Assembly (NCBI RefSeq): GCF_049075655.1
Contig: NZ_CP157522.1
Coordinates: forward strand, 1,408,001-1,472,000
From: Methanothermococcus sp. Ax23
Lineage (GTDB): Archaea > AGJL01 > Methanococci > Methanococcales > Methanococcaceae
Length of the DNA: 64,000 bases
Reading direction: 5' to 3'
Shown: in pieces, positions 11,275 to 50,145 of the stretch
Layout: every line of letters begins with the position of its first letter
How positions within the stretch are numbered: the first letter of the stretch is position 1
Translations under genes and position numbers: made by a program
The notes under the pieces: generated by a model
The model's database searches: none
Told to the model about the DNA's origin: nothing
What the model saw: only the letters and a program-made list of their open reading frames with translations

Positions 11275-11584
11275 CCCCAATATGTAAGTATTATTTATTT
11301 TTCTAATTAGAATGTTATCTTCGTTATTTTCTCTATTTCCTTTGTGGGATATGCCGTAGGCATTATCTTCCTTAAAAGCAATTTCATTACGGTCAAAAGT
11401 TTCAATAAGTTCAATTTCTGGAATTTCTATTTTAGGGTTATAGTTGATATATCTCCTTCATTGTTTGTTGTGATTTCTTCGTTGAGTATGTTGTTAGTAT
11501 CCTTAATTTCATCAATATCAAAATGTTCCTACAATAATAAAGTGGGTCAAAGAATATAAAAAAATATAAGCTTAAAGGAATTGG

Positions 11585-11633
11585 ATGAAATCACTTCGTG
11601 ATTTCATTGCTATCCTTCGCTATCGCTCGGATA
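11585..11633. repeat. Two adjacent mini-hairpins
   Basis: ATGAAATCACTTCGTGATTTCAT and TATCCTTCGCTATCGCTCGGATA; relatives at ~15598-15620 and 16362-16374. Confidence 0.7.
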
Positions 11634-15493: not shown

Positions 15494-15540
15494 AATAAAA
15501 TTCACCATAAGATAAGATATAATAATATGATAAAAAGAGT

Positions 15541-15915
15541 CTGACCTACTCCAACGAGTGAACTCGTTGGGTTCTCGCTTACGGTAGTAAGCGAGCAACG
15601 AAATCATGAAGTGATTTCGTCTAATTTTAGTAGGGTTTAACCCTACACGGGTGGCCAAACCCACTACCCCTATCCCCGTTTAGGAGATTCAGGGCTACCT
15701 TTTGAACTTCCAAACACTACCAGCGGTAGAGTTTTCGATAACCCTACCCATAGATACTTGGACTGGTAGCGTTACTTACTACTAATCTTCACATATTTAT
15801 ATTTTACTACTTACTAGCCGATATAATGTCCGCCTCTCATCCAATCTCGTAAGAGATTTTACAAAACTATGTTTTGTATAACGATTAAAATCGTTGGCTT
15901 TCTCGGCGGTTTATC
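15541..15915 (-). mobile_element. Family-1 IS200/IS605 derivative (copy B, 375 bp, with extra hairpin inserts)
   Basis: Reverse complement runs TTAC|GATAAACC...GTAGGTCAG; inserts at ~15574-15623 and ~15843-15879. Confidence 0.88.
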
Positions 15916-15941
15916 GTAAATTGCACTATTTTATAATTTTA

Positions 15942-16255: not shown

Positions 16256-17745
16256 CTAATGTCGGCGGAAAGACCCCTTCCGTCTTAAAAACCTACGGTT
16301 TTTAAAATCACCGAACGAAGTGAGGTGAGCTACAAAAATCGCTAGATTTTTGTTTAATCTCCTCGCTACGCTCGAAGATAAGGGCGGGGATGAGAGCCGA
16401 CAGAAAAATACAAATATCATAATCTATAATATTATATATATAATATAATTGGTGATATAATGTATCTTACTCAAAAAAATCACTTACGAGGTGATAAAAA
16501 AACATACAAAATATTAAAAATATTAACGAGATTATCAAAAAATCTATATAATTACACATTATACACAGTTAGACAGTATTTTGAATTAAATAATCAATTT
16601 CTAAATTATGAAAGTGCATATCATCACATAAAAGAAAATGAAAATTATAAATTATTGCCATCACAAGTGGCACAACAAACAATGAAAATAGTAGATAGAA
16701 GTTTCAAATCATTCTTCAGATTAATACAAGAAAGACAAAAAGGAAATTACAACAGACCAATAAAAATGCCTTATTACTTACCAAAAAATGGTTATTTCGT
16801 GATAATATTTCCAAAAAATATGTTCAAAATCATTAATAATAAAATAAGATTATCATTAGGTAGAAACTTCAAGAAAGAATGTGGAATTCAATATTTAGAA
16901 TTCCAACTTCCTAAAAACATTATTGGAAAGAAAATTAAAGAAGTAAGAATAATCCCAAAATATAATGGTTTATGGTTTGAGATTGAGTATGTTTATGAAG
17001 TTGAATCAATTGATTTGAAATTAGATAAAAATAATTACTTATCAATTGATTTAGGATTGGATAATTTTGCTACTTGTTTCTCAACCACCAGTAGGACTCC
17101 CTTCATTATTGAAGGTCGAGATATTAAATCATTCAACTGCTGGTGGAATAAAAGAAAAGCAGAGTTGCAATCAATCTATGATAAACAAGGAATTAAGTTT
17201 GGTAAAAAAATGACTTACTTACTGAATAAAAGAAAAAATGTAATAAACAATTTTATGAACCAATCAGTAAATTATATTATTAAATATTGTATCAAAAATA
17301 ATATTGGTAGGGTAGTAATTGGTGAATTGAAGGAAATAAAACAAAACATAAATCTTGGTAAGAATAACAATAGGAATTTTGTTTTAATTCCTTATGGATT
17401 ATTCAAACAAAAATTGCAATCAAAATGTAAATTATTTGGTATTGATTATATTGAAGTTGATGAGGCTTACACTTCAAAATGTGATGCATTGGCATTAGAA
17501 CCAATTAAAAAACATAAAAAATATTTAGGTAATAGAATTAAAAGAGGATTATTTCAATCATCAATTGGCAAATTAATCAATGCTGATGTTAATGGTGCTA
17601 TTAATATACTACGAAAGATAGCTGGGGATTCCCTTGTTAAAGGGATACTCAGTAATGGGCTCGTGAATAGTCCTGTAAGGGTGAGAGTTGTATAACTCGA
17701 TGACATACCTTACGAAGCCCCTCCCATAAGGGAGGAGTAATTCAC
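16256..17745 (+). mobile_element. tnpB-only IS200/IS605-family element (IS1341 type)
   Basis: Follows TTTAT; left and right subterminal hairpins; ends TTCAC; joining the flanks restores nadA ...GTT AAA TAA. Confidence 0.9.
16460..17695 (+). CDS. tnpB: RNA-guided endonuclease TnpB
   Basis: SKNLYN, SIDLG (RuvC-I), EAYTSKC, INADVNGAINI (RuvC-III). Confidence 0.93.
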   Translation: MYLTQKNHLRGDKKTYKILKILTRLSKNLYNYTLYTVRQYFELNNQFLNYESAYHHIKENENYKLLPSQVAQQTMKIVDRSFKSFFRLIQERQKGNYNRPIKMPYYLPKNGYFVIIFPKNMFKIINNKIRLSLGRNFKKECGIQYLEFQLPKNIIGKKIKEVRIIPKYNGLWFEIEYVYEVESIDLKLDKNNYLSIDLGLDNFATCFSTTSRTPFIIEGRDIKSFNCWWNKRKAELQSIYDKQGIKFGKKMTYLLNKRKNVINNFMNQSVNYIIKYCIKNNIGRVVIGELKEIKQNINLGKNNNRNFVLIPYGLFKQKLQSKCKLFGIDYIEVDEAYTSKCDALALEPIKKHKKYLGNRIKRGLFQSSIGKLINADVNGAINILRKIAGDSLVKGILSNGLVNSPVRVRVV

Positions 17746-41070: not shown

Positions 41071-41128
41071 GGTGGATGATGACCGGAGTAGCTTCTGATT
41101 TATGATGATAGATGGGCGAGCTGACACC
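41071..41128 (+). ncRNA. C/D-box methylation guide sRNA
   Basis: GGTG-gATGATGA-12nt-CTGA-ttt-ATGATGA-12nt-CTGA-CACC; upstream TATA run, downstream T-tract. Confidence 0.92.
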
Positions 41129-49757: not shown

Positions 49758-49765
49758 TTTATCAC

Positions 49766-50145
49766 GACTCCTTCGGCAGGAAGCCAACGGCTCCGCAACG
49801 AAGTTGCGACCTAAAACCTTCGGTTTTAAGTTTTCCTCACTTTCGTTCGGAAATGCTATAAAAATCCGAAGGATTTTTATTCAATTAGCCGTTGGAGGAT
49901 GCCGAAAAATTTATATGTTGTATAAACTATATATTGTAATAAACCCTAAGGCACGAAGCTCGGTAGAGTGGATACGGTTGGAAGGGCACATATTAAATGT
50001 GATATTTATAGGGCTGTTGTCAGCCAGCCTAATGTCCTCCGCCCTTATTATTGAGGGAGTTGGATTGAATAAATTCCTTCGGAATTTATAGCTCTCCGCT
50101 TCGCTACGAAGGGCAAGCCAACGACTTTAGTCGTTGGTAGCTGAC
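49766..50145 (+). mobile_element. Family-3 non-autonomous IS200/IS605 derivative (380 bp)
   Basis: TCAC|GACTCC...GAAG+hairpin; right end CAAG+hairpin+GCTGAC; removal gives rad50 TAA-GTGAT-AAA-ATG PIN. Confidence 0.82.

Follow-up and report, generated by a model that had tools for sequence, protein, structure and literature searches.

The window analysed here, 64,000 nucleotides (nt) of the chromosome (C1) of Methanothermococcus sp. Ax23 (genome G000; G000:C1:1408001-1472000), contains arrays of short hairpins lodged in the end structures of two elements, a tnpB element of the TnpB-only IS200/IS605 family of insertion sequences (IS) and a non-coding element referred to as family 3. We found that these hairpins belong to units of 45-57 nt, each composed of an AT-rich perfect palindrome and a GC-rich tail, which very probably were inserted independently of their hosts, in transposon ends as well as in open genes. 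Our reading, to which we give a probability of roughly 0.6, is that the units are very small non-autonomous mobile elements native to Methanococcales. An earlier note on this DNA had suggested that every hairpin of 13-23 nt was mobilised on its own; mobility is borne out, although what moves is a 45-57-nt pair of modules, or a composite of ~100 nt, and not the single hairpin. The genome comprises a chromosome of 1.66 Mb (32% G+C) and a second contig, C2, of 7.7 kb, with a completeness of 98.9%. Positions without prefix refer to the window, and other genomes are identified by their numbers (G033 and so on).

The evidence for insertion comes from ten comparisons of filled and empty alleles, made at paralogous ends of IS and of MITEs (miniature inverted-repeat transposable elements) as well as at orthologous genes, in all of which the boundaries were constant. 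In gltX, the only glutamyl-tRNA synthetase (GluRS) gene of the genome, an insert of 57 nt adds 19 codons in frame. It has no match at this site in 22 other genomes of the family; the flanks abut in 21 of them, including relatives 92-93% identical, and the 22nd offers one flank only, at a contig end. The closest empty site reads CCTTCTAT followed directly by CTTT, and the filled one reads CCTTCTAT, then C...CCAAT, then CTTT. Over 58 nt it shows 95% identity with another copy at a distance of 440 kb (C1:567583-567640), which indicates that insertions are copies and not local inventions. Units of 45 and 48 nt are present in an ATP-grasp gene and a thiamine pyrophosphate (TPP)-enzyme gene, respectively, both with empty orthologues. 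None of the three inserts interrupts its reading frame, and each is flanked on either side by Pfam domains. G000 and G033 have in common a further unit, which is situated close to the end of a CobB/CobQ-like gene and whose palindrome is lost in the two genomes alike. One tnpB also harbours a unit in frame; in-frame copies are present in four enzyme genes and a tnpB.

Transposon ends gave the same picture. Among seven family-3 copies, three have a TTTT loop in the left end (LE) and nothing near the right end (RE), and two have a different LE with three hairpins; the window copy holds a 93-nt composite together with a 45-nt unit (50064-50108), and the copy at C1:1587k has an extra unit of 46 nt in its LE loop and two further hairpins near the RE. 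Six copies of the tnpB-type LE were compared. Two are simple, with GTAA loops (C1:1054805 and C1:1154568), and four contain units at four different positions, namely the 5' internal loop, a site immediately behind the apical loop, the 3' internal loop and, in the window copy, the apex (the filled copies outside the window are C1:1036336, C1:1071343 and C1:706340). In the window, the array enclosed by the LE stems spans 89 nt, at the place where related copies hold a 4-nt GTAA or GTGA loop. In a second tnpB/MITE family, a unit of 51 nt lies just inside the RE hairpin of three tnpB copies and three MITEs, and is not found in two tnpB copies and three MITEs. For the unit at 15574-15625, copies of one IS/MITE family with and without it were seen to differ at an identical point. 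Since empty and filled alleles exist for both types of end-hairpin and for single-copy genes, the modules are inserted DNA and not fixed ancestral parts of each element family. Two intergenic units (L018 and L019) lie in orthologous sequence too diverged for the alignment to be read.

The insertions share a defined signature. Removal of C...YYAAT restores the empty site in 10 of 10 comparisons, with no need to assume a duplication. Among 26 copies of non-redundant families sampled from three other genomes, the base at position -1 is T in 25 and that at -2 is A in 18. These copies are tail matches and comprise the 17 listed of G037, 3/7 of G026 and 6/20 fetched of G039; the 14 further G039 copies were set aside as parts of a single larger repeat, in which the flank is ATCT throughout. 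In one G037/G026 pair the flanks are the same. Targets in genes and arrays read CTAT, CAAT, CTAAT or AAAAT, and those inside GC-rich IS ends CCCTT, TCCCC and GGGG. The AAT that closes a unit is itself a good target, so new copies would settle behind or inside old ones and produce stacked arrays. Growth of arrays, as the earlier note had supposed, is indeed seen as nesting and tandem insertion in the family-3 copies and in arrays of G033 and G037; in G037 (L085), head-to-tail tandem units share their terminal T.

Insertion sites are far from evenly spread. A profile of the unit gave 65 matches in G000 (E<0.05), 45 of them in repeated elements and 20 in unique DNA. No open frame of at least 80 codons spans 55% of the unit matches, as against 8.8% of 500 random sites; the enrichment in IS ends and non-coding DNA, for which the earlier note had proposed a test, is real. 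At least four independent events fell within ~330 nt of tnpB-type LE, compared with 20 solo units elsewhere on the chromosome. The concentration in IS ends is thus very strong, and shared ancestry of the IS copies and weaker selection in their ends contribute to it too. Units go with strong preference to loops and to internal bulges in end-hairpins of the IS200/IS605 type, as well as to the position immediately inside the RE hairpin. The cumulative GC skew of the chromosome is too weak to define replication arms.

When the GC-rich module was used for searches, it was nearly always found behind an AT palindrome. The arrangement of a unit is ATT(G/A)(A/G), a palindrome of 21-23 nt, AG or TG, and a tail of 17-21 nt (CTCTCCGCTTCGCTCCG and variants). 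The tail contains GCTTCGC, the complement of the GCGAAGC mini-hairpin, and in some subfamilies takes the form of a complete GC palindrome whose loop is GGTA or GTA. Taken from the opposite strand, the unit is 5'-C-tail-CT/CA-palindrome-YYAAT-3', with G-N-A loops in both parts; in this orientation the AT palindrome, of 9-11 bp, is closed by C(GAA)G, and the tail includes a GC(GAA)GC mini-hairpin or a longer GC palindrome. A GNA loop is found on the YYAAT strand in 38 of 41 perfect hairpins that have a YYRAY end and a GC-rich partner, many of the 41 being copies of two IS-borne units. Besides the simple units there is a composite of ~95-105 nt, made of a GC palindrome, an AT palindrome, a hairpin with the tail motif in its loop, another AT palindrome and CTAAT. 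This four-hairpin composite moves as a block too. Five copies lie in other surroundings, and in family 3 it occupies the LE loop of the window copy and of the copy at C1:1587k.

The modules listed in the earlier note are all where it had put them, at 16286-16304, 16308-16328, 16332-16353 and 16362-16374 in the tnpB end and within 49793-49885 in the family-3 end. Their order is not free, as had been thought, since they are arranged as pairs of palindrome and tail. Nor is each of them a palindrome throughout: CTCGCTACGCTCG is not palindromic as a whole, pairing being confined to its GC-TAC-GC core. In the tnpB end, the four modules amount to two units, one nested in the other: modules 2 and 3 make up the inserted unit, which separates module 1, the palindrome of the outer unit, from module 4, its tail. 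The homologous array of G033 exists with the inner unit (L075-L077) and without it (L083, which has modules 1 and 4 only), and the difference is exactly 47 nt. As for the supposed relatives elsewhere in the window, 11585 and 11611 proved to be the two halves of one 51-nt unit, 15574 does belong to a 52-nt unit inside a MITE, and 44761 and 47097 are hairpins without a GC-rich partner. At an orthologous intergenic site of G000 (L017, G000:C1:1276527-1276574) and G033 (L130), the AT palindrome is common and the tails and loops differ, one tail being a degenerate 17-mer and the other a full GC palindrome; this would reflect either turnover of the tail or re-insertion at one site.

Hairpins of this kind are much more abundant than random palindromes, in agreement with what had been expected of them. 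The 1.66-Mb chromosome contains 116 perfect hairpins with stems of at least 6 bp and the loops C(TTC)G (61) or C(GAA)G (55), where ~1 would be expected; in each of five genomes simulated with a third-order Markov model, either loop occurred 0-2 times. The tetraloop hairpins C(GGTA)G, C(GTAA)G, C(TTAC)G and C(TACC)G occur 18, 15, 14 and 12 times, respectively, against 0-2 in the Markov genomes. Stems vary between copies and are nevertheless nearly always perfect, following the pattern AYRAAA...TTTYRT. Folded as single-stranded DNA (ssDNA), the LE region of the tnpB element reaches -31.5 kcal/mol (z -5.15) and that of family 3 -33.8 kcal/mol (z -5.54), and none of 200 shuffled sequences folded as well in either case. 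Both fold as a long outer stem around several hairpins.

Across Methanococcales the distribution of the units is patchy. The 17-nt tail (up to 2 mismatches) was found in 12 of 40 genomes of the order, in both families, with 0-1 matches for reversed-pattern controls; a search at phylum level covered the same 40 genomes. The pattern of palindrome plus YYAAT has 74 matches in G000 (control 2), 64, 58 and 24 in three relatives and 7-17 in six more genomes (controls 0-4), and is at background in the rest, among them every one of the seven genus-g2 genomes as well as a relative with 93% identity in gltX (4 matches, control 6). Identical units of 46 nt were found in different families. In genomes of two different genera (L092 in G037 and L104 in G026), one unit has flanks that are identical for 60 nt or more, which points to a segment that is either shared or transferred. 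A contig of 31% G+C from a metagenome-assembled genome labelled Bacteroidales (L162), possibly a mis-binned Methanococcales contig, also bears a unit of canonical build (ATTGA, 9-bp palindrome with TTC loop, AG, 17-nt tail, ATTA).

Outside the order, the tail 17-mer was discarded as a range marker, because in prokaryote genomes and viral contigs it gave at least 174 loci, nearly all in GC-rich bacteria or phages, which is near chance in 596 Gb. In some GC-rich bacterial or viral contigs (L205, L201, L272, L286 and L240) it abuts a perfect GC-rich hairpin, sometimes with CGCT(T/A)CGC nearby. A palindrome of at least 6 bp lies within 34 nt upstream of the 17-mer in 11 of 176 among the matches listed, and extra core motifs accompany 38 of 174 among the loci listed, against 11 for a permuted control. 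Such pairings may be due to chance plus terminators.

The elements that host the nests are themselves IS200/IS605/TnpB elements or their MITEs. The peel-and-paste transposition of IS200/IS605 elements goes via ssDNA and produces no target duplication. It is catalysed by TnpA (PMC10055086), and mini-hairpins of the d(GCGAAGC) type melt at ~76 °C (PMC13037366). In the mechanism we propose, a unit would move as ssDNA, its heat-stable GNA-loop hairpins being recognised by a strand-specific HUH-type nuclease/ligase. This enzyme, acting by peel-and-paste like the TnpA of IS200/IS605, would be supplied in trans from a gene present in some Methanococcales and lost from G000, and insertion would be precise, without target duplication, directly 3' of a T (mostly AT). 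Mobilisation by ssDNA and an HUH-type enzyme, for which we would put the chances slightly below even, fits the footprint-free insertion, the junctions (a T before the first C of the unit and AAT at its end), the GNA loops of both parts on one strand and the preference for hairpin DNA.

Y1 TnpA genes were detected in 6 of the 40 Methanococcales genomes, intact in three (G007, G014 and G038) and broken in three. The tail motif is present in 5 of these 6 genomes and in 7 of the 34 others, a comparison to be read with the kinship of the genomes in mind, as both traits may track IS load. The full IS of G007 and G014 has an LE built like that in the window and sits after TTAAT or TTTAT, resembling the targets and ends of the units; the LE of the window tnpB element follows CTAAT. 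Some tnpB copies of G000 are 99.6% identical over 1161 nt, and MITE copies up to 98%, so IS-type elements multiplied not long ago in a lineage that is now without tnpA. A bolder proposal is that the units are single-palindrome "nano-transposons" of 45-57 nt, an unrecognised class and the smallest mobile DNA known from archaea, moving as heat-stable ssDNA hairpins that target hairpin-forming ssDNA, including TnpB ends and the guide-RNA region, by means of an enzyme other than canonical Y1. The multiplication of units and of TnpB-only IS copies (the 99.6% pairs) in a lineage with just a 23-residue tnpA remnant would speak for such an enzyme; we hold this proposal to be rather unlikely.

Several observations weigh against mobile units handled in this manner. 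The co-occurring HUH enzyme of the TnpA/RAYT type that the earlier note had in mind is missing from G000: Pfam PF01797 (Y1) has no match in this 98.9% complete genome, and tblastn with the TnpA of G007 (Methanocaldococcaceae) returned only a C-terminal remnant of 23 amino acids (C1:947365-947430). G037 and G039, rich in units, have no Y1 TnpA either. There is no resemblance between the unit hairpins and the GC-rich LE and RE hairpins to which a TnpA of the resident IS families would bind, nor with those of the tnpA-bearing IS of G007 and G014, and we know of no IS200/IS605 end that works as a single-hairpin substrate. In gltX and in the ATP-grasp and TPP-enzyme genes, the flanks repeat 4-5 nt of the unit end (the target reads CTAT/CAAT, CAAT or CTAAT), and a short target duplication is conceivable there, although the other seven comparisons exclude one. 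The left flank is not T in 2 of the 10 comparisons (C at C1:1071343 and G at C1:1036336), and ~4 of 12 full units have the loop turned round with respect to the tail, which a strictly strand-specific process would not predict. Finally, whole arrays are inherited; at least six LE copies of G033 share the four homologous modules, so many stacks must be old and were not assembled in place.

Other searches for a mobiliser in G000 were also negative. No match was obtained for reverse transcriptases (PF00078); that for Y2 enzymes (PF04986) was empty as well, but its control gave no match at all and this negative carries no weight. C2 encodes no HUH domain and yielded only a weak match to a DEAD helicase. 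One large open reading frame (ORF) of this contig (L136) seems to cross the contig ends, its other ORFs are without a Pfam family, and it is probably a small circular replicon. The tnpA remnant (70% identity) lies directly upstream of the tnpB that has the in-frame hairpin unit.

The lack of a recognisable enzyme would be explained if none were needed and the units were copied by errors of replication or repair, through a switch of template to an ectopic copy, synthesis primed from a hairpin, or joining at microhomologies. Such events would be favoured by stalling where hairpins are very stable and by the 1-2 nt (T or AT) common to unit end and target, and shared sequence of 1-2 nt is possible at every junction. 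No gene for a Y1, a Y2 (with the uninformative search just mentioned) or a reverse transcriptase was found in G000, the loops and the central module occur flipped, insertions cluster in hairpin-forming DNA, and the stems are perfect yet different between homologous arrays, as copying from arm to arm would leave them. Error-driven copying should, however, generate ragged ends, and the boundaries are exact in 10 of 10 comparisons; moreover, a non-palindromic tail and the ends C...YYAAT are kept across two Methanococcales families, and these, with the identical 46-nt units, point to specific machinery. We therefore consider an origin by copying errors rather unlikely. Selection on the hairpins as working parts of the IS and MITEs, serving for transposase binding, insulation from transcription or stabilisation of the TnpB guide RNA and being swapped by recombination or gene conversion, could explain why 45 of the 65 unit matches are inside repeated elements and why the window array is matched module by module in at least six G033 copies, with changes in both arms that keep the stems perfect. 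The RE-proximal unit even lies where, from the biology of TnpB, the guide RNA scaffold would be expected. An exchange among IS copies cannot, on the other hand, have given rise to the gltX, ATP-grasp and TPP-enzyme insertions with their empty orthologous sites; empty IS ends are common, units occupy four positions of a single 50-nt end structure, and the coding-region unit shared by G000 and G033 has lost its palindrome, so that no selection retains it there. This makes selected IS parts an improbable general explanation.

Individual selection as host elements acting at the RNA level, as terminators, stabilisers of mRNA or protein-binding sites, was considered as well, given that many units lie between genes and that bacterial repetitive extragenic palindromic (REP) elements have such roles (PMC2817692, PMC3733652). 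Here the units occur in both orientations, within coding frames and in IS ends, their favoured loops are GNA triloops, stable as DNA, whose register is not that of the RNA tetraloop cUUCGg, and no Rfam family matches the hairpins in the window, all of which renders an RNA-level role very unlikely. Small non-autonomous mobile elements thus remain our preferred reading.

The features of the window are compiled in Table 1. The orthologous site of G033 lacks the tnpB element, with the flanks abutting, and that of G027 has ~60 nt between the flank matches; on the basis of these two sites the element ends were placed at ~16260 and ~17745. The MITE at 15497-15927 and this tnpB copy, ~330 nt apart, are two different IS200/IS605-type elements, and both are missing at the orthologous site of G033. 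The LE and RE hairpins of family 3 are alike in sequence. The unit at 11580-11630 was classed as repeated DNA, as one of its 150-nt flanks matches the genome a second time, and no usable orthologous match was obtained for it. In a search of the whole window with Rfam, no family covered the hairpins, and the sole match at gathering level was a C/D-box small RNA, sR2 (RF01139, 55.2 bits), at 41072-41126 (+). No tRNA genes were found in the window.

Table 1 Hairpin units, their host elements and related features (window positions)
Feature	Position	Strand	Basis or remarks
tnpB element, TnpB-only IS200/IS605 family	16260-17745	+	ORF domains; ends set by empty orthologous site
tnpB element, LE	16260-16404	+	outer stem 16261-16267 with 16395-16401, plus inner stem
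Module 1: perfect palindrome rich in AT, stem of 8 bp, loop TAC (other strand: GTA)	16286-16304	+	outer unit with module 4
Nested 50-nt unit (modules 2 and 3)	16309-16358	+	GC-rich hairpin with CGAACGAAGTGAG tail motif, GCT, 9-bp AT palindrome, end TTAAT
Module 4: GC-rich tail motif, reverse orientation	16359-16374	+	partner of module 1; motif family of the 17-mer tail
tnpB gene, 411 aa	16460-17695	+	Pfam OrfB_IS605 2e-20; Cas12f1-like TNB domain 4e-11
tnpB element, RE hairpin and terminus (...ATTCAC)	17718-17745	+	similarity to copy C1:1055106 stops there; empty-site boundary
Family 3: non-coding IS200/IS605-like MITE, basic form ~260 nt	49762-50145	+	7 copies aligned, flanks differ
Four-hairpin composite, 93 nt, in family-3 LE loop, ending TCAAT	49793-49885	+	TTTT there in three other copies
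Canonical 45-nt unit (ATTGA, palindrome, AG, 17-nt tail) just upstream of family-3 RE hairpin	50064-50108	+	missing in 5/7 copies
MITE from another tnpB family	15497-15927	-	>30 copies, 86-98% identical; LE 15830-15909 with three hairpins
52-nt unit: GC palindrome with GGTA loop, CA, AT palindrome, CTAAT	15574-15625	+	adjoins MITE right-end hairpin 15551-15570
51-nt unit: ATTGG, 10-bp palindrome with TTC loop, TG, 21-nt tail	11580-11630	+	nhmmer E 0.007
Hairpin only, 8-bp stem, C(GAA)G-type loop	44761-44779	+	upstream of GTPase-like ORF
Hairpin only, 6-bp stem, TTC loop	47097-47111	+	within longer imperfect inverted repeat

If the mechanism holds, these units would be a natural minimal substrate for footprint-free, hairpin-guided insertion of DNA at high temperature. 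Their nests map the loops of IS200/IS605 ends, and of the expected TnpB guide RNA region, that tolerate insertions of 45-100 nt, and the gltX insert is a clean example, one that can be dated, of selfish DNA adding 19 residues to a protein. Copy number swings widely among close relatives (74 versus 4 pattern matches) with no recognisable transposase, which raises the question of what moves the units and the TnpB-only elements. Were the enzyme indeed a non-canonical one, finding it would bear on the spread of TnpB-only elements.

Palindromic repeats had in fact been reported from this order, contrary to the statement of the earlier note that it knew of no description for Methanococcales. The MJRE1-3 repeats of Methanocaldococcus jannaschii are said to average ~100 nt, a length that would suit the four-hairpin composite better than the 45-nt unit. 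They are repeats of palindromic type that have coding potential (Suyama, Lathe & Bork 2005, FEBS Lett 579:5281, as cited in PMC2229807 and PMC2996958) and, like our units, they lie between genes and are fused in frame within protein genes of a member of Methanococcales (PMC2229807, PMC2996958). The unit motifs are also present in Methanocaldococcaceae, the sister family. Our comparison with MJRE1-3 is based on the descriptions in these two citing papers, whose passages are silent on nests within IS200/IS605 ends, on insertion 3' of a T without a footprint, on filled and empty alleles and on a two-part unit. A full-text literature search gave nothing further on such repeats in Methanococcales beyond the M. 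jannaschii report, and in the literature searched we did not find the two-part unit, the nesting in TnpB or IS200/IS605 ends, the insertion signature or the filled and empty alleles described.

The occurrence of one repeat both between genes and in frame within open genes, typical of MJREs and of the Rickettsia palindromic elements (RPEs), is a feature of the present units as well. RPEs reportedly measure 100-150 bp. They are palindromic selfish repeats found in frame in housekeeping genes that they do not destroy (Ogata et al. 2000, Science 290:347; PMC2996958), as are our units in GluRS, the ATP-grasp enzyme, the TPP enzyme and TnpB. RPEs are, however, bacterial and without sequence relation to the units, which are 45-57 nt long and concentrated in transposon ends. 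Very short, apparently selfish and abundant palindromes are also known from the mitochondrial and plastid DNA of Volvox (PMC2670323), in hosts and with sequences unrelated to ours.

The earlier note had likened the modules to REP sequences and bacterial interspersed mosaic elements (BIMEs), which are short high-copy palindromes forming mosaics of alternating orientation and are thought to be handled as ssDNA hairpins (PMC2817692, PMC3479197). The units share with them the short palindromes, the high copy number and the clustered mosaics, but the likeness fails on both defining points, the REP tag and the RAYT gene. Their feet read AYRAAA...TTTYRT and then YYAAT, with no GTAG/CGTC tag (tag as given in PMC3733652), no RAYT or other Y1 gene exists in G000, and the units enter coding DNA instead of being extragenic only. 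RAYT-type subclasses were not seen among 172 archaeal genomes surveyed (PMC6006769). Classical MITEs of DDE transposases were rejected as a model, the ends C-GGAGCG... and ...YYAAT not being inverted repeats and 7 of 10 insertions showing no duplication.

The palindrome-associated transposable elements (PATEs) of the IS200/IS605 group (term as used in PMC3119063 and PMC10055086) resemble the units in that they bear hairpins, insert without target duplication at a short AT-rich target and leave a footprint-free empty state. PATEs, however, keep both the LE and the RE hairpin of their parent element, whereas a unit, 5-10 times shorter, is built of a single AT-rich palindrome with a GC tail, both unlike the resident LE and RE hairpins.

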